A stretch of DNA of 64,000 nucleotides from positions 133,175 to 197,174 of the forward strand of contig JAFWRO010000012.1 in the NCBI GenBank assembly GCA_017519885.1, given 5' to 3'. Made by a program: the position numbers and the translations under genes. Every line of letters starts with the position of its first letter. Within the stretch, counting starts at the first letter, position 1. Below the pieces are notes generated by a model. That model saw nothing but the letters and a program-made list of their open reading frames with translations. It had not been told where the DNA came from and searched no databases. This document shows, piece by piece, positions 6,521 through 62,109 of the stretch. The DNA comes from Bacteroidales bacterium (GTDB lineage: Bacteria; Bacteroidota; Bacteroidia; Bacteroidales; UBA3663).

Positions 6521-6898
6521 GCAGTAGGCCTGTCTGTCGCTCGCTCCACGCGAGAGGAAAGTCCGGGCTACACAGGGCTCCATGCCGGTTAACAGCCGGT
6601 AGGCGGCGACGTTTAGGTTAACGTAACAGAAAATAACCGCCCCGCAAGGGGTAAGGGTGAAAAGGCGAGGTAAGAGCTCACCGCACACTTGGTAACAAGG
6701 CGTGGCTGTACGTCCCATGGGTTGTAAGATCATGTATACTGGTGGTTGGTACGTGTCGGAAACGATACTGTGTCCATGAAGGGCGGCCCGTCCAAGCCAG
6801 GGGGTAGATTGCTAAAGTGCGTCAGTAATGGCGAACTCAGATCAATGGCAGACACCTGTCGAAAGACAGGGACGGAACCCGGCTTATCAGCCTACTGC
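6521..6898 (+). ncRNA. rnpB: RNase P RNA, bacterial type A
   Basis: Universal motifs are present: GAGGAAAGTCCGGGCT at 6554-6569, ACAGAAAATAACCGCC, GGTAAGGGTGAAAAGG and ACGGAACCCGGCTTAT at 6872-6887. The P1 helix pairs GCAGTAGGC (6521-6529) with GCCTACTGC (6890-6898). Confidence 0.95.
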
Positions 6899-6919
6899 AT
6901 TTTTTACTAAAAACCGAGA

Positions 6920-13409: not shown

Positions 13410-15026
13410 TTATTCGAATGCACCCATCTTGAGCATGCTTACCTCCTGCTGGGTGAGGTGACGCCAGCGGCCACGTGGCAGGTTCTTCTTGGTGAGTCCT
13501 GCGAAATAAACGCGGTCGAGCTTCACGACACGATAGCCGAGGTGCTCGAAGATACGACGCACGATACGGTTCTTGCCCGAGTGGATCTCGATACCAACCT
13601 GGTTCTTGTCCTCTTCGTTGGCATAAGCAATGGCATCAGCATGGATAGGACCATCGTCAAGTTCGATGCCTGCTGCAATACGAGCGAGATCGGTCTCGGC
13701 CACATCCTTGTCAAGCCATACGTGATAGATCTTCTTCTTGATGTACTTGGGATGGGTGAGTTTCGAAGCGAGGTCACCATCGTTGGTGAGGAGCAGCACA
13801 CCAGTGGTGTTGCGGTCGAGACGACCAACAGGATAGATACGCTCGCGGCTTGCATTGCGCACCAGATCCATAACGGTCTGACGGCCCTGTGGATCATCGC
13901 TGGTGGTGACGGTATCCTTCGGCTTGTTGAGGAGTACATAGACCTTGCGCTCGAGGCTTACGGGCTGGTCGTTGAAGGTCACCTGATCCTTGCGGGTCAC
14001 CTTGGTGCCGAGTTCGGTAACGACCTCACCGTTTACCTTGACCAAACCAGCTGCGATGTGCTCGTCGGCTTCACGACGCGAGCAAACGCCTGCATTGGCC
14101 AAATACTTGTTGAGACGCAGTTCCTCATTCGGATCGACGATTGCCTCGGTGTATTCCACCGGACGATGTGGGTTGTAGCCCTGATGCTTGCGATTGGGTT
14201 TCTGCTTCTGAGGACGTCCGAAACCGCCCTGCTGGGGACGACCGTAGCCACCCTGCTGGGGACGACCATAACCGCCCTGCTGGGGACGACCGTAACCGCC
14301 CTGCTGTGGACGACTGTAACCACCCTGCTGGGGACGGCCATAACCACCCTGCTGACGACCGTAACCGCCCTGTGGACGGCCGTAGCCACCCTGCTGGGGA
14401 CGCTGATAGCCGCGTGGCTGGTAACCGCCCTGTGGCTGATAGTTCTGCACATAGCCGCCTTCCTGTGGCTGCTGATTCTCCTGAGCCTTGCCTTCCTGTG
14501 GCTCGCCCTGGGGCTGCTGATAGCCCTGATTATCATTGTAGCGCTGGTAGCCGTTATTGGGACGCTGTGGACGCTGGTAGCTCTGATAGCCGCCCTGCTC
14601 GCCATCCTGGTTGTAACGACGATAACCGCCCTGGGGACGCTGGGGACGCTGATAGCTACCCTGGTAGCCGCCGCCCTGTGGACGCTGGTAGCCACCACCC
14701 TGCTGATAGCCGCCTTCGCCTTCCTGTGGGCGCTGATAGCCTTCGCCATCCTGCATTGGACGCTGGTAACCGCCACCACGCTGATAGCCACCACCACGCT
14801 GGTAGCCGCCACCACGCTGATAACCGCCGCCACGACCATATCCGCTATAGTCGTTGGCGCCACCGCGCTGATAAGAGTTACGTGACTGTGGATCATAGGC
14901 GGCTGCGTTACCGAAGCGGCTCTCGCCGATTCTGGGACGACGCTTTGGCGCCTGCTGTGATGCACCTTCTGGTGCTGCATTACCCTCCTGTGGGGTATTT
15001 GCCTGTGGGTTCTGATTTTCTTCCAT
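13410..15026 (-). CDS. rluB: 23S rRNA pseudouridine synthase (RluB/RsuA family) with a ~295-aa RGG/YQ low-complexity N-terminal extension
   Basis: The S4 domain is [30 protein letters not shown] and the catalytic loop is [19 protein letters not shown]. The track start at 15032 is a TTG; the first ATG is at 15024-15026, 2 nt after the purB stop. Confidence 0.85.
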
Positions 15027-29285: not shown

Positions 29286-29918
29286 ATGAATCAAACGAAT
29301 CGGCTCCACCTCTTGCTACTGTCCTTTGTCGTCATAGTCTTCATATGGTCAGCAATCAATGTGCAGGACACCTATCTCACCTGGGCGCTTGAAGCTGCGC
29401 CTGTCATAATCGCACTACCTATCCTCCTCTTCACCTATAAGAAGTTTAAATTCCCCACTTCTATTTATGTCATTATCACCATTCACATGGCGCTTTTGCT
29501 TGTCGGTGCACATTATTCTTATGCTAAAGTACCCCTTGGTGAATGGATGAAGGATTGGTTCGGCTTCGAACGCAACAACTATGATAAGATAGGACATTTC
29601 ATGCAAGGATTCACGCCCGCCCTTGTTTCGGTGGAGATTATTCGTCGCTGCAACCCGCTTACATCTTTCAAGTGGATAAGTTTCTTCTCGTTCTGCATCT
29701 CAATGACCGTTGCAGCCCTCTACGAAATCATTGAATGGCTCTCGTCTTTGGGCAATCCGGAAGACACCGAAGCTTTCCTGGGTACACAAGGATACATCTG
29801 GGATACACAGTCGGATATGTTCATGTGTCTTTGCGGAGCAGTCATCGCCATTCTCCTATTAAGGACCATCCATCCGTGGTCATCGAAAACTCAAACAAGA
29901 GAAGGACGTCAGCCGTGA
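29286..29918 (+). CDS. DUF2238 (YjdF-like) inner-membrane protein
   Basis: The track start at 29253 is a TTG, so the first ATG at 29286 is used. The protein has multiple TM helices and the FERNNYDKIGHFMQGF motif typical of DUF2238. Confidence 0.65.
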   Translation: MNQTNRLHLLLLSFVVIVFIWSAINVQDTYLTWALEAAPVIIALPILLFTYKKFKFPTSIYVIITIHMALLLVGAHYSYAKVPLGEWMKDWFGFERNNYDKIGHFMQGFTPALVSVEIIRRCNPLTSFKWISFFSFCISMTVAALYEIIEWLSSLGNPEDTEAFLGTQGYIWDTQSDMFMCLCGAVIAILLLRTIHPWSSKTQTREGRQP

Positions 29919-29927
29919 CATCCTGCC

Positions 29928-30347
29928 TTATAACCTTTTTTGGCCAAGATTGGGTATTCTCCTCCAGAAGTATGACCTTTCTTGGCCAAAATTGGGTATG
30001 CGCCTACCGCGGCATGACCTTTCTTGGCCAAGATTGGGTATGCGCCCATCACGGCATGACCATTCCTGGCCAAGATTGGGTATGCGCCCATCGCTGCATG
30101 ACCTTTTCTGGCCAAGATTGGGTATGCGCCCATCGTGGCATGACCTTTCTTGGCCAAGATTGGGTATGCGCCCATCGCGGCATGACCATTCCTGGCCAAG
30201 ATTGGGTATACGCCAACCGCGGCATGACTTTTTCTGGCCAAGTTTGGGTATGCGCCTATCGCGGCATAACCTTTTTTGGCAAAGATTGGGTATAAAACGA
30301 CATCGGCATGACCAATCTTAGCCAATATTGGTCATGCCGATGTTGTA
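29928..30347. repeat. Tandem array A: 10 units of exactly 42 bp, ending in a perfect 16-bp-arm hairpin
   Basis: Units start at 29928, 29970, 30012, ... 30306 with no indels. The consensus is GCATGACCTTTCTTGGCCAAGATTGGGTATGCGCCCATCGCG. The terminal hairpin pairs CATCGGCATGACCAAT (30301-30316) with ATTGGTCATGCCGATG (30327-30342). It lies 54 nt downstream of the GH2 stop on the minus strand and is followed there by TTTTAT. Confidence 0.9.
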
Positions 30348-38076: not shown

Positions 38077-39339
38077 ATGATGAAACGTTTGATTCTGGCT
38101 GCGCTGGCAGTGGTAGTCACACTTCCCGCAGCAATCTCGACCCAGGCTCAGGACGACGTCTATTACAGCCGTAAGAACAGCCGCAAGCAGGCTTACGAAT
38201 CGACTTCGAACGACGTTTGGTCCACCAAAGCCAATGACGATTGGGACGTTGACGCCTACAACCGTCGGTCGTCTTCGTTCAACACTACTCCCGAAATAAC
38301 ACTGCAGAGCGACAGCTTGATGCTTTCCGCTCAACCCAAAGCTGTGCCCGACACCATTTACGTGGTGGAGCAGTATTATAACAGCAACCGTATTCGCCGC
38401 TTCCACAATCCGCGATTCACCTGGTGGATGTGGGACCCCTGGTATGACGTTGCATATTGGGATCCATACTTCTGGGATTACTGCTACTGGGATCCCTGGT
38501 GGTATGTCACCCCCGCCTTCGGTTTTCACTGGGGCAGCTGGTGGTATGGCTGGAACTATGGCTACTACACCGGATGGTACGGCGGATGGTACTCTCCCTT
38601 CTATCATCCTTATCCCCACTACTGGGGTCCATACTGGTATGGTGGTGGAGGTGGCTACCGCAACAACATGGGTGGACACTATGCCCATTACGATGGGCAT
38701 GGAATGGGGAATCACTATGGTCGAAACGGCTTCCATAGCGGACGCGATAATACGCGCACATCTTCAATCTCCACCCAGCCGGGAATTGCCAGCCGTCATG
38801 GTGCCAACCTTCGCAACAGCAACATGCGAGGCGATATGCGCCGCGGCAATCGCGGTCGTGATGGCGGCAACGTGGCAACACGTGGTGGCAACGGTACTCG
38901 CGGCGGTAACGGATCGCGCGGTACTATAGGCGCAGATGGCAGAACATCCACTCGTCCTGGATCGGGCAACAACCCTGCCGTAAGCTCGCGCAGCAATCGC
39001 AACTTCGACAACAGCAGTGCTCGACGTAGCGCCAATGGTGTACGCCAGTCCGACACAGGACGTACAAGCACACGCCAAACTGGTGTTAGCGGTACCCGCA
39101 GCAGTTCACGCGGCAGTGCCAGCGTCAGCGGAAGAGGCGGTGGCGGCTTTCACATCGGCGGTGGCGGCTACAGCGGCGGAAGCTCTCGCAGCAGCGGTGG
39201 CGGCTATAGTGGCGGAAGCTACGGTGGCGGCACACGTAGTGGCGGTGGCGGTGGCGGCGGCAGCTACAGTGGCGGCGGTGGCGGCGGTGGCAGCCATAGC
39301 GGTGGCGGCGGCGGACACAGCGGCGGCGGTCGTCGATAA
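38077..39339 (+). CDS. Secreted low-complexity protein with a Trp/Tyr-rich core, an R/G/N/S-rich middle and a poly-Gly/Ser C-terminal tail
   Basis: The signal peptide is MMKRLILAALAVVVTLPAAISTQAQ. A ~77-aa block (FTWWMWDPWYDVAYWDPYFWDYCYWDPWWY...HYWGPYWY) holds about 18 W and ~20 Y by hand count. The tail is GGGGGGGSYSGGGGGGGSHSGGGGGHSGGGRR. Confidence 0.7.
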   Translation: MMKRLILAALAVVVTLPAAISTQAQDDVYYSRKNSRKQAYESTSNDVWSTKANDDWDVDAYNRRSSSFNTTPEITLQSDSLMLSAQPKAVPDTIYVVEQYYNSNRIRRFHNPRFTWWMWDPWYDVAYWDPYFWDYCYWDPWWYVTPAFGFHWGSWWYGWNYGYYTGWYGGWYSPFYHPYPHYWGPYWYGGGGGYRNNMGGHYAHYDGHGMGNHYGRNGFHSGRDNTRTSSISTQPGIASRHGANLRNSNMRGDMRRGNRGRDGGNVATRGGNGTRGGNGSRGTIGADGRTSTRPGSGNNPAVSSRSNRNFDNSSARRSANGVRQSDTGRTSTRQTGVSGTRSSSRGSASVSGRGGGGFHIGGGGYSGGSSRSSGGGYSGGSYGGGTRSGGGGGGGSYSGGGGGGGSHSGGGGGHSGGGRR

Positions 39340-54977: not shown

Positions 54978-55041
54978 TTGACATCCATCAATTGTTAATT
55001 GTTAATTTTTAATTGTTAATTATTAATTGTTAATTGAATTC

Positions 55042-59641: not shown

Positions 59642-59760
59642 TTTGCGATAGTTATCGAATTTGGCCGCAAATATAGTCATTTTCCGCAACATGGCCAAAT
59701 ATTTTAAGCATTACTTCACATTTCGCCCAGTTATTTTTACTATTTTAATAATAGACATAG

Positions 59761-59794
59761 CAATAAAAGCACTCTGCCGAACCCGACAGAGTGC
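59761..59794 (-). terminator. Intrinsic terminator of the 31-codon mini-gene
   Basis: The minus-strand hairpin GCACUCUG-U-CG-GGUU-CG-G-CAGAGUGC is followed by UUUUAUUG. Confidence 0.75.
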
Positions 59795-59839
59795 CTTACA
59801 CACACATATATTATTAACTAAACCAAACTTTCCTTGAAG

Positions 59840-59935
59840 TCACAATGCACGATGATGATTCTCAATAATCATGGCACCAATTCTCAGCGCGATAGAAAAG
59901 AGAATTGCGGTAGTGAAGAATGCGATAGCGATCAT
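59840..59935 (-). CDS. Candidate small hydrophobic protein, 31 aa
   Basis: Hand translation gives MIAIAFFTTAILFSIALRIGAMIIENHHRAL*. The ORF is below the track size cutoff. It has its own TAtcTTTG box (60009-60016) ~75 nt upstream and its own terminator (59761-59794). Confidence 0.45.
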   Translation of the reverse strand: MIAIAFFTTAILFSIALRIGAMIIENHHRAL

Positions 59936-60008
59936 AGTGGTATATTTTTTGTTTGTTATTATTATTGTTAGTGGTCACTTGACTTGTGAATTATTTTTTT
60001 TCACAGTG

Positions 60009-60016
60009 CAAAGATA
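60009..60016 (-). promoter_or_regulatory. -7 box TAtcTTTG (minus strand)
   Basis: The plus strand reads gtgCAAAGATAggg. Confidence 0.6.
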
Positions 60017-60155
60017 GGGCATATTTCGCAAGTCAGCAAACTTTTTCTCCACATTTTAATCATTACATAGCGTCAGGGTTGTTAATCCGCGACAACCCTT
60101 GCCACCCCCTTCCGAATCTGTCGCCCCGATGTGGGGAAAAAACAAAAAAATCGCA

Positions 60156-60606
60156 GCAAGCATCGTGTCGCGCGTCAGAGTGTTCTATTCTATGGGAGAA
60201 AGCATTGTGTCGCGCGTCAGAGTGCGCTATCCTGCGGGAGCAAGCATTACATCGGCCGTCAGCGTGCTCTATCCTACGGGAGCAAGCATCGTGTCGCGCG
60301 TCAGCGTGCTCTATCCTGTGGCAGCAAGCATCGTGTCGCGCGTCAGAGTGCTCCTTCCTGTGGGGGCAAGCATCCTGTCGCGCGTCAGAGTACTTTATCC
60401 AATCGGAGCAAGCATCCTGTCGCGCGTCAGAGTACTCTATCCAATCGGAGCAAGCATCCTGTCGCGCGTCAGAGTACTCCATCCCGTAGCATCAAGCATC
60501 ATGTCGCCCATCAGAGTGCTCCATCCAATCGCAGCAAGCATCATGTCGCGCGTCAGAGTACTCTATCCGCTCGCATCAAGCATCATGTCGGCCGTCAGAG
60601 TGCTTT
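60156..60606. repeat. Tandem array B: ~10.7 units of exactly 42 bp, from a different sequence family than arrays A and C
   Basis: Units start at 60156, 60198, ... 60576 with no indels. The consensus is GCAAGCATCGTGTCGCGCGTCAGAGTGCTCTATCCTGTGGCA. The array is flanked by A-rich direct repeats, GAAAAAACAAAAAAA (60136-60150) and GAAAAACAAAAAAG (60615-60628). Confidence 0.9.
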
Positions 60607-60700
60607 TAGACATAGAAAAACAAAAAAGCATGATGATGATAGTCTTTCCGACATAGGATAATCACTGCACCTAAATACCGAAAAACAATTTCCCACCATC

Positions 60701-61162
60701 GCATGTCCCCCAACGAACCTTAGCAGACATCTTCCAATCGCCGCATGTCCCCCAGCGAACATTAGCGGACATTCTCCAATCGCTGCATGTCCTCCAGCAA
60801 CCCTTAGCGGACATCTGCCCATCGCCGCATGTCCTTCAGCGAACATTAGCGGATATCCTCTCATCGCCGCATGTCCTTCAGCGAACATTAGAGGACATCC
60901 TTCCATCGTTGCATGTCCTTCAGTGAACGTTAGCGGACATCCTTCCATCACCGCACGTCCTCATGCGAACGTTAACGGACATCTGCTCATCGCCGCATGT
61001 CCCCTAACGAACGTTAGCGGACATCATCCTTTCGTCGCATATCCTTCAGCGAACGTTAGGGGACTTGCCGCTGCCGTAGCATATCCTTCAGTGAACGTTA
61101 GCGGATATGCTTCTATCGAACCATGTCTTCCAACAAATGTTGAAGGACATGCGCGCCTTCGA
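60701..61162. repeat. Tandem array C: 11 units of exactly 42 bp, homologous to array A; each unit is a hairpin and the last unit is an extended hairpin abutting a stop codon
   Basis: Units start at 60701, 60743, ... 61121 with no indels. The consensus is GCATGTCCTTCAGCGAACGTTAGCGGACATCCTTCCATCGCC with an ATGTCC/GGACAT inverted repeat. The terminal hairpin (61122-61151) lies 14 nt after the minus-strand stop at 61165-61167. Confidence 0.9.
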
Positions 61163-61164
61163 TT

Positions 61165-62109
61165 TCAACGGATAGAGGGAGAAAGGACTGATTCTTCTAT
61201 GATTCGATATTTCCTCAGTTCGTGTATCAGGTCGCGCGTGAACTCGTCGGCGCCACGAGCATTCAGGTGCGAGCCGTCGTAGAAGAACTCGTTGCGATGC
61301 ACATACTTCGCGCTATCTGTGAAGTCGAGGAACGGACAACCGTACCTGCAGGCAAGGTCACGGATGGGCTCCGTCCCCGAATCGCGGAAGCCGTACCACG
61401 TGGGGGAATAAACGAAGACGAACCTCGTGTCTTCAGCTTCCCGTATCATATCTTCGAAATACCTCAGCTTCAAGCTGTCGGTCAGCAGCTCTTCTTCGGA
61501 AGCCTTCTCGTTCAGCTGTTTTTCGTCCCTGATCCTGAGCGTGTCCAGCTCGCTGTGGACGGGAAGGAAGCCGAGAGTCATATTGTGCACGGGATGCAGG
61601 TAGTCCAGCAGAACCTGATGGAACCGCGAGTTGTAGCGGTAGAGCATGCTCAGCATCCTGTACCTTTCGCATGGGTCTATCTCGTCGAACTCCCTTCTGA
61701 CAACCTCGTCATCGTAATGTCCCTTCAGCCAGCCCAGATGCTTCGTGTTGTCACCCTGCAGGACATCGTAGGCGGGCGTCACCTCATAGATGACGAGGCG
61801 CGGCTGGTAGCGCCGCCTGATCATTTCCCACCATGCGCGGTAAAGGACGATGCCCTCGCCGTCCTGCCCGCAGTTGTAGCACGACAGGCCGAGGGAGTCC
61901 GCAATCAGCGCGGCATTGTAGTGATGGATGGCGCGGGAGGAACCGAATACGAGTATGTCGTCCGTCGATCGGTTGACGATGTAGTTCTGGTGGCCGAGAT
62001 AGCCGCCCGATGCGTGGTCCGACATATAGGAGAACAAGGTGCCGAGCCCCCTGTCCAGCAGGACTACTAACAGGAAGAACAGGCCCGTCTTGAATAGAAA
62101 ACGTCTCAT
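61165..62109 (-). CDS. SGNH/DltD/AlgJ-like putative O-acetyltransferase partner protein (N-terminal membrane anchor)
   Basis: The 314-aa ORF has a TM anchor (FKTGLFFLLVVLL), VFGSSR (a GDS-like block) and a C-terminal DGSHLN block. Its start lies 3 nt after the MBOAT stop. Confidence 0.55.
   Translation of the reverse strand: MRRFLFKTGLFFLLVVLLDRGLGTLFSYMSDHASGGYLGHQNYIVNRSTDDILVFGSSRAIHHYNAALIADSLGLSCYNCGQDGEGIVLYRAWWEMIRRRYQPRLVIYEVTPAYDVLQGDNTKHLGWLKGHYDDEVVRREFDEIDPCERYRMLSMLYRYNSRFHQVLLDYLHPVHNMTLGFLPVHSELDTLRIRDEKQLNEKASEEELLTDSLKLRYFEDMIREAEDTRFVFVYSPTWYGFRDSGTEPIRDLACRYGCPFLDFTDSAKYVHRNEFFYDGSHLNARGADEFTRDLIHELRKYRIIEESVLSPSIR

Follow-up and report, generated by a model that had tools for sequence, protein, structure and literature searches.

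Array C, a tandem array of dyad-symmetric 42-bp units beside an SGNH-like gene, as the probable right arm of a dispersed composite repeat element in rumen Bacteroidales

Array C and the composite element

We analyzed a 64,000-nucleotide (nt) stretch of a Bacteroidales contig (hereafter, the window), in which 11 tandem 42-bp units, designated array C (60701 to 61162, + strand), adjoin the stop codon of a gene encoding a DUF1574/SGNH-like protein. Our data favor, with reasonable though far from complete confidence, the interpretation that array C forms the right-hand arm of a ~1-kb composite—namely, array B, a 96-nt spacer, and array C—that represents a non-coding, non-autonomous, dispersed hairpin minisatellite. 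The same parts, in the same order, occur at unrelated loci of other species, and we assign the composite to a superfamily of tandem dyad-symmetric units of 41 to 42 bp (types A to D) found on the chromosomes of rumen Bacteroidales, including Prevotellaceae.

The units of array C (consensus GCATGTCCTCCAGCGAACGTTAGCGGACATCCTCCCATCGCC) are described on the + strand, which is the family orientation as set by an ATCG-NN-GCATG junction. An earlier note on this DNA had described eleven units in an exact 42-bp register without an indel, and this description was borne out by direct reading (unit starts at 60701 + 42k, head-to-tail, last base 61162), by Tandem Repeats Finder (TRF; 60700 to 61064, period 42, 8.7 copies, score 394, 0% indels, with rows of longer period reaching 61118), and by a unit profile, which matched all 11 positions in register and nowhere else in the window. 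The inverted repeat ATGTCC/GGACAT reported for every unit is likewise present, as a dyad ATGTCC-N16-GGACAT in each; allowing at most one mismatch, this pattern was found nine times, in all nine cases on the 42-bp lattice, versus 0.16 expected from shuffles. Direct reading also confirmed the individual variants that had been singled out, i.e., the double change in unit 10 (61079), which reads GCATATCC...GGATATGC, the G.T pair on the + strand of unit 4, and the C.A pair on the + strand of unit 7, which amounts to G.U on the − strand. By our own count from direct reading, stem columns are ~4 times more conserved than the remaining columns. The near-palindromic core GCGAACGTTAGC is present in this lineage but is not kept across C-type arrays (pair 13-24 is Watson-Crick in just 12 of 85 C-type units), and this inner near-palindrome is lineage-specific.

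The unit nearest the gene carries an extended hairpin (61122 to 61151, +), which forms the conserved right end of the element. Its 14-nt arms are as previously reported, with 12 Watson-Crick pairs and 1 G.U among the 14 positions, and the whole 42-nt unit folds as RNA at −13.2 kcal/mol (+) or −14.0 kcal/mol (−). The flanking gene (61165 to 62109, −; 314 aa) indeed has its stop codon at 61165 to 61167, and the distance from hairpin to stop codon is 13 nt rather than the 14 nt given before.

Array B, the left arm of the composite, comprises 10.7 units of 42 bp (60155 to 60604, +; consensus AGCAAGCATCGTGTCGCGCGTCAGAGTGCTCTATCCTATGGG) and is separated from array C by the 96-nt spacer (60605 to 60700, +), a unique sequence that is conserved at other loci. 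A third 42-bp array of the same superfamily, array A (29933 to 30347, +), is located between convergent DUF2238 and GH2 genes. According to TRF, arrays A and B resemble array C in being non-coding, with period 42 and no indels, and all three share one orientation in the window. Their units are built alike, i.e., a dyad-symmetric unit followed by a C-rich linker; arrays A and C are identical at 24 of 42 positions in register and have the junction CCATCGC-N-GCATG in common, of which array B has a weaker linker version. A profile made from one window array nonetheless recovers no unit of the others. The right-end unit of array A (30306 to 30347) holds a near-perfect hairpin (30306 to 30337), the most stable of that array, and folds as RNA at −15.2 kcal/mol over its whole 42 nt. 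The 42-bp units have no 21-bp sub-period. A higher-order period of 126 bp (three units) is marginal in array A (88% matches at 126 bp versus 87% at 42 bp) and no better than 42 bp in arrays B and C.

Recurrence, alleles, and unit turnover

To assess dispersal, we relied on a pattern scan of species-representative genomes, in which the loci (L numbers, also used here for metagenome contigs) are the matches listed, so that counts are lower bounds. The scan answered the question whether the family is dispersed: at least nine metagenome-assembled genomes (MAGs) of rumen Bacteroidales carry A- and C-type arrays at unrelated loci, including RGIG7573, Tb.RUG.418, RUG465, RGIG8089, a reindeer MAG, RUG14526, and RUG11585. 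C-type arrays in particular were present at at least nine further loci (L005, L014, L024, L036, L046, L095, L105, L108, and L112) in at least seven MAGs. Since the arrays are found in independent assemblies (ENA, JGI, and GenBank MAGs), they are not assembly artifacts.

The composite itself was recovered at L105 (RUG465), where a C array, the spacer, and a B array lie between GH88 and GAF genes; at L024 (RGIG7573), where C, spacer, and B lie beside a group II intron; and at L095, in the same order and orientation as at L105 and L024. At L036, the spacer and a C array occur without B, between peptidase C25 and GT2 genes. The flanks of L105, L024, and L036 are unrelated to those of the window, and among the loci listed no protein-coding gene recurs beside the arrays. 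The spacer (~100 nt) aligns at five loci, with ~75% identity in the non-orthologous L105, L024, and L036 and the orthologous L095, and B-type arrays were also found in L105, L024, and L095. All C-type arrays, at unrelated loci, end on the same side in ...GGGGGACATGCC.CGA with a more symmetric unit, the extended hairpin. An orthologue of array A is present in L114. Mosaic arrays were detected at L038 (6150 to 6570) and L077 (1270 to 1700), in which A units are interleaved with reversed B units in one 42-bp register; at L077, an array of the fourth unit type, D (41 bp; L077 and metagenome contigs), directly abuts the mosaic array. Whether the arrays are always 3' of genes, as the earlier note had wondered, received a divided answer: most but not all of the elements (13 of 14) abut a gene 3' end, and in 6 the stop codon lies no more than 20 nt away. 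The copies examined are all intergenic.

The group II intron at L024 (1383 to 3234, −) is complete, with an RVT_1 and GIIM open reading frame (ORF) and Rfam matches to D1-D4 and D5/D6, and its end lies ~130 nt away from the C array's terminal hairpin.

In orthologues of the DUF1574/SGNH-like gene from twelve metagenome contigs and one MAG (85 to 96% amino-acid identity), the gene 3' end occurs as at least four structural alleles, which are empty, hold a D array, combine a D-type unit with a short C array and array B, or hold C plus B. In the array-free L125 and L129, a native hairpin, ATATGGAA..TTCCATA, comes after a gene end that reads ...aatgtaattgactga; L126 is also array-free, but has another 3' flank. 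L123, L124, and L131 carry a 41-bp D array and then the downstream flank CAACGGATTTGGAAATCGATTTCGCG, as in the empty L125 and L129. Because this flank occurs in both D-array and empty alleles, the two form a filled/empty pair; what has been replaced is the native hairpin together with the final codons. L095 has its breakpoint in the loop of the native hairpin, beyond which come a D-type unit, other sequence, a run of five C units, the spacer, and array B. The C plus B allele contains 11 C units in the window and in L001 to L004, and 12 in L120 to L122. Window and L123 have a junction just past the stop codon in common (TCGAAGGCGCG). Across the series, the last codons and 3' flank of the gene differ between array and array-free alleles, and the breakpoints fall in or beside the native 3' hairpin. 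The downstream genes differ as well (bamD in the window, other genes in L123 and L125), which places the element at a synteny breakpoint.

These observations contradict the proposal of the earlier note that the array grew out of the 3' hairpin of this gene: C-type arrays at unrelated loci all have the extended hairpin as their terminal unit, and array-free orthologues end otherwise, with a different native hairpin. Nor are the interior units progressively decayed copies, as had been suggested; they instead represent a homogenized derived variant, with the edge unit being more palindromic, and the same is true of array A. Array edges that escape homogenization would be expected to keep the palindromic state, as at the ends of arrays C and A.

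Comparison of close relatives indicated how the arrays change. Relative to the window, L002 lacks one B unit and shows a single substitution, located in array C, over an otherwise identical 1.6 kb, and L120 has an extra C unit and also lacks one, with just 4 substitutions in the array. Gain and loss of whole units keeps pace with, or outruns, the accumulation of point substitutions. The spacer is identical at 96 of 96 positions between window and L120, and the element as a whole is 99 to 100% identical, inside a wider recombination tract (~59910 to 61404) flanked by divergent patches. We considered this identity as evidence of selection and rejected it, because the identical tract runs well past the element; it bears on selection in neither direction. 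Unit length does look constrained. No indel was found among 96 distinct variants in the window arrays (~6 expected) or among 281 distinct variants in all C arrays (~17 expected), with expectations derived from the indel-to-substitution ratio of neighboring intergenic DNA, and the 41- to 42-bp unit and its dyad symmetry persist across types A to D despite their different sequences.

On the interpretation as a dispersed composite minisatellite, the element would have reached the terminator region of the gene by insertion or recombination, and its arrays would expand and contract by slipped-strand mispairing or unequal recombination. The ATCG-NN-GCATG junction, the ATG...CAT stem ends, and the fixed 42-bp spacing might be read by a putative propagating or binding protein. 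At this site, the element would amount to no more than a generic series of stem-loops in the untranslated interval that separates the SGNH-like gene from bamD, and would not be a device dedicated to this gene.

Several points weigh against this interpretation. No transposase or partner gene was identified among the array-flanking genes scanned, and no gene for a transposase or binding protein recurs among the flanking genes of the listed loci. At the element ends in the window, L105, L024, and L036 (4 to 5 copies compared), we found neither terminal inverted repeats beyond the unit dyads nor target-site duplications. Part of the allele series could stem from homologous recombination among dispersed arrays instead of true insertion. 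A functional binding array or a structured RNA would equally be predicted to show a strict unit length, a conserved stem sequence, and a conserved spacer. Moreover, the 64 kb read covers three arrays at two loci, a figure that does not extend to copy number genome-wide.

Dyad symmetry and competing explanations

The earlier note had suggested that pairing or palindromy, rather than sequence alone, is maintained in array C. Within this array, the suggestion did not stand: pairing amounted to 84% versus 83.6% in column-shuffled units, and 243 of 500 shuffles reached the observed value. The compensatory change of unit 10 is thus anecdotal and, on its own, no statistical evidence. At the family level, it did stand, as 124 unique A and C units were paired at 75.7% over 14 symmetric pairs versus 67.3% after shuffling (0 of 500 shuffles reached the observed value), and pairing dropped to 33 to 42% when the partner was slid. 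Among these units, pair 6-27 is T-A, A-T, or G-C, and two or three Watson-Crick forms were seen for each of the pairs 6-27, 7-26, 9-24, 13-20, and 14-19; these forms stem from only three or four independent lineages. Mismatches of the G.T and A.C types, which derive from few columns, show no clear bias (66 versus 34 in A units, 129 versus 101 in C units); A and B units are symmetric through the unit centre; and, on our own reading, element orientation relative to neighboring genes is mixed (7 co-directional, 4 antisense). Taken together, the absence of such a bias, the mixed orientation, and the central symmetry of A and B favor a constraint on double-stranded DNA, or on both strands equally, over one acting on a single RNA strand. 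As RNA, the two strands folded better than shuffled sequence (+ strand, z = −5.0; − strand, z = −5.3), and lone units fold moderately (B units, about −2 to −12 kcal/mol).

Searches for known functional classes gave the following picture. The terminal hairpin of array C had been regarded as terminator-like; past it, on the gene strand, follows GGTTCGATAGAAGC, which lacks a U-tract, and no terminator-like site was scored in 60155 to 61162, so that this description fails. The Bacteroidetes promoter motif TAnnTTTG was absent inside the arrays and just upstream of them. With Rfam, the arrays had no match at the gathering score (window and five related loci), and only sub-threshold chance matches at E values up to 10 (arrays and five related loci). 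No plasmid match was found in 72,556 plasmids and no phage match to the arrays; a single match among viral contigs was at chance level. The immediate neighbors of the B/C element are the MBOAT, DUF1574, and BamD genes, and in family orientation the element is antisense to both of its window neighbors. A clustered regularly interspaced short palindromic repeat (CRISPR) locus was rejected as a candidate, given that the units are contiguous and spacer-free beside these neighbors, as was a sopC-like plasmid centromere, given several chromosomal loci, no adjacent partition genes, and no plasmid match.

The principal competitor, and the more interesting outcome, is a phased array of dyad sites, in which a dimeric DNA-binding protein of a nucleoid-structuring, insulator-like, or centromere-like kind would occupy each 30-bp dyad; the exact 42 bp, equal to four helical turns, would place all sites on one face of the DNA and allow cooperative assembly. 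SopB binds F-plasmid sopC in a comparable setting, and integration host factor (IHF) and gyrase bind bacterial interspersed mosaic elements (BIMEs). We regard this explanation as unlikely overall, though it accounts for much of the evidence: the complete lack of indels where ~6 to 17 would be expected, the 41- to 42-bp length kept by sequence-unrelated families together with their dyad symmetry, the symmetry of A and B units through the very centre (TTGGCCAA; CGCGCG to CGGCCG), which the loop of an RNA hairpin does not need, the absence of a strand bias between G.T and A.C mismatches, and the inconsistent orientation relative to neighboring transcription. The same idea was put forward by Subirana and Messeguer for 21- and 52-nt repeats (PMC8161180). 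It is weakened by the lack of a candidate protein, none recurring beside the arrays, and by the four families and dyads, which would require several proteins or one that reads only a short shared motif. Certain arrays have a 41-bp period, C units are asymmetric at their centre, and the presence of three arrays in 64 kb, with frequent loss or replacement in close relatives, argues against an essential chromosomal role. A role at the RNA level, i.e., a multi-hairpin 3' untranslated region, a terminator or insulator, a stabilizer against 3' exonucleases, or a source or sponge of small RNAs, appears more doubtful still. It would explain why both strands fold better than shuffled sequence, why 13 of 14 elements abut gene 3' ends, and why a native 3' hairpin was replaced by the element; a solitary B-like hairpin with a T-run (59762 to 59794) resembles a real terminator, and the 52-nt repeats of B. 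coagulans are transcribed (PMC8625621). Against such a role, none of the units is followed by a U-tract, scoring of the arrays gave no terminator-like site, single units fold weakly, there is no G.U strand bias, orientation is mixed with the B/C element antisense to both neighbors, and neither a Bacteroidetes-type promoter in or just upstream of the arrays nor an Rfam family was matched.

The remaining explanations are far less probable. A local, neutral slippage minisatellite grown from the terminator hairpin of the SGNH-like gene would be consistent with the different unit numbers of close strains and with covariation in array C no better than chance, but it is already contradicted by the recurrence, in other genomes and at unrelated loci, of the unit type along with its spacer and partner array, by the terminal hairpin being a family feature, and by the different native hairpin of empty alleles; we give it very little credence. 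Equally improbable is a cluster of recombinase (invertase or resolvase) sites, in which direct repeats would yield unit-wise deletions and dispersed arrays would yield rearrangements. The C-unit core ACGWACGTT is reminiscent of the inverted-repeat core of the Bacteroides fragilis Mpi invertase site, reportedly ARACGTWCGT. Agreement with this consensus extends to 9 of 10 positions, units are gained and lost whole, and the element lies at a synteny breakpoint (bamD in the window, other genes in L123 and L125). The arrays, however, contain no exact match to the consensus (one chance-level match lies elsewhere in the window), the motif is missing from A, B, and D units, and no recombinase gene lies beside any array scanned. 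Least credible, to the point of being nearly dismissible, is a protein-coding array of 14-residue repeats (42 bp = 14 codons). The period is divisible by three, parts of the arrays can be read through in several frames, and the minus-strand frames of A and C share a ..GHAAMG..-like motif. Yet the coding explanation is already contradicted, as no frame is open across array C; variable columns, on our own reading, lack a three-base periodicity; four assemblies have no gene call on array C; Pfam matches are absent or spurious; and related arrays have a 41-bp period. The longest C-array pseudo-ORF (L105, RUG465) found one weak relative among 5.8 billion proteins, a yield that makes the pseudo-ORF search useless as a census.

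Pfam scanning of nine array ORFs gave no meaningful match apart from an odd one: a pseudo-ORF across array A (window 29909 to 30325, −) matched PF12105 (SpoU_methylas_C) with an E value of 2.4e-8, above the curated cut-off, which is probably spurious. A 175-aa "gene" was called on array B in an ENA assembly (L001 5563 to 6090, −, corresponding to window 60131 to 60661, +); it has no Pfam match and is spurious, because the repeat is stop-free.

Related repeat systems and minor features

The earlier note recognized no described repeat class in array C. Close analogues do exist, i.e., constant-size tandem repeats, BrickBuilt, the repetitive extragenic palindrome (REP)/BIME group, and mycobacterial interspersed repetitive units (MIRUs). 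The system that fits best is the class of tandem repeats of constant repeat size and variable sequence described by Subirana and Messeguer, with sizes of 20 to 21 nt in many phyla and 52 nt in Firmicutes (PMC8161180, PMC6749651). For these, a polymerizing protein or small RNAs were proposed (PMC8161180). The arrays here share with them sequence-unrelated families of one exact unit length within a genome (three 42-bp arrays in the window), 4 to about 12 copies, a non-coding, intergenic location, short motifs with their reverse complements (here the ATCG-NN-GCATG junction and the ATG...CAT ends in A and C), and lineage specificity with partial conservation between strains (here, array and array-free alleles). 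Unit size sets them apart, being 41 to 42 nt in Bacteroidales as opposed to 20 to 21 or 51 to 53 nt. The two-array composite layout, polar end units, and allele series at one site are features of the elements here that are not known to have been described for those repeats.

BrickBuilt is a minisatellite inside a Porphyromonas gingivalis MITE (miniature inverted-repeat transposable element; Klein et al. 2015, PMC4596501). Both systems belong to the order Bacteroidales and form spacer-free tandem arrays with many intergenic copies, variable unit number, and no autonomy, and both contain conserved non-repeat segments, represented here by the spacer at five loci and the conserved end units. In contrast, the BrickBuilt unit has 23 nt without a long dyad versus 41 to 42 bp with a dyad; its leader and tail carry terminal inverted repeats, none of which were seen here in 4 to 5 copies compared; and it contains promoters, whereas the arrays here hold no Bacteroidetes-type promoter motif.

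REP/BIME elements and REPINs (REP doublets forming hairpins) occur with RAYT (REP-associated tyrosine) transposases in Enterobacteria and Pseudomonas (PMC3733652, PMC3116915). Like REPs, which are imperfect extragenic palindromes of 20 to 40 bp, the units here have a dyad of 28 to 32 bp with a short tag by the stem, lie mostly at gene 3' ends or between convergent genes, and form clustered mosaic arrays of strain-variable number. REP tags, however, read GTAG or CGTC, as opposed to the conserved junction ATCG-NN-GCATG, and BIME and REPIN units alternate with variable linkers, whereas the units here run head-to-tail at a fixed 42 bp; reversed units occur only in L038 and L077 (B among A). No RAYT was seen here, nor any transposase among the array-flanking genes scanned.

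The MIRUs of Mycobacterium tuberculosis are reportedly intergenic tandem units of ~40 to 100 bp at tens of strain-variable loci. The arrays here resemble them as dispersed intergenic tandem arrays with strain-variable copy number. MIRUs lie in operons, with short ORFs overlapping the stops and starts of their neighbors, and are not built on dyads, whereas the elements here have no coupled ORFs. F-plasmid sopC consists of 12 tandem 43-bp units, with an inverted repeat in each that is bound by SopB, and shares with the arrays here about a dozen direct units of 42 to 43 bp, each with a dyad. It differs in being one plasmid locus beside sopAB, in contrast to multiple chromosomal loci and several families with no nearby partition genes.

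A bolder reading would treat these arrays as the Bacteroidales branch of a cross-phylum class of helical-phase-locked satellites, with units of 21, 42, and 52 bp corresponding to 2, 4, and 5 turns of B-DNA, a dyad in each, and ATCG-NN-GCATG in many, read by a putative chromatin-like or propagating protein; we hold this to be distinctly speculative and improbable. The matches listed include 42- and 21-bp ATCG-NN-GCATG arrays from Deltaproteobacteria, Anaerolineae, Verrucomicrobia, Spirochaetes, Cytophagia, Cyanobacteria, and one archaeon. Among them are L010, L035, L054, L056, and L058 (Deltaproteobacteria MAG-93), L034, L051, L067, L078, L086, L090, and L111 (Anaerolineae), and L057, L079, L080, L098, L109, and others. 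Their units usually contain a perfect palindrome, some genomes have several loci, and L035 also has a second, motif-free 42-bp family. These matches could be pure ascertainment among the very many tandem repeats of 185,000 genomes.

The present arrays extend the constant-length, variable-sequence repeats to a third unit size, 42 nt, and to another phylum, and bring in a composite two-array element with polar ends, mosaic arrays, and filled, empty, and replaced alleles at one terminator. In practical terms, they are a source of spurious ORF calls, such as the 175-aa "gene" on array B, may break contigs or cause misassembly in rumen MAGs, and serve as markers for hot spots of recombination and rearrangement. 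Should the fixed spacing be due to a binding protein, the arrays would also offer a handle on chromosome organization in Bacteroidales, about which little is known.

Upstream of bamD, the window contains a candidate small RNA or leader (59762 to 60050, −). A Bacteroidetes-type promoter, TTTG ... TATCTTTG, lies at 60016, and ~220 nt past it is an 8-bp GC-rich hairpin, GCACTCTG..CAGAGTGC, followed by TTTTATTG (59794 to 59762, −), the arms of which equal those of B-type units. Rfam gave a weak match to BTnc201 at 59757 to 59840 (E value of 0.045), and this patch is the most divergent intergenic part between window and L120. Elsewhere in the window, runs of the heptamer AATTGTT are located at 1469 to 1511 (4.1 copies) and 54990 to 55036 (6.7 copies). 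GC-rich tandem repeats were found at 14208 to 14402 (periods 24/72), 14760 to 14834 (periods 18/36), and 39136 to 39330 (GGC-rich, 15 to 30 bp); having periods divisible by three, they are probably coding repeats. A bacterial RNase P RNA of class A is encoded at 6521 to 6902 (+; 237.8 bits).

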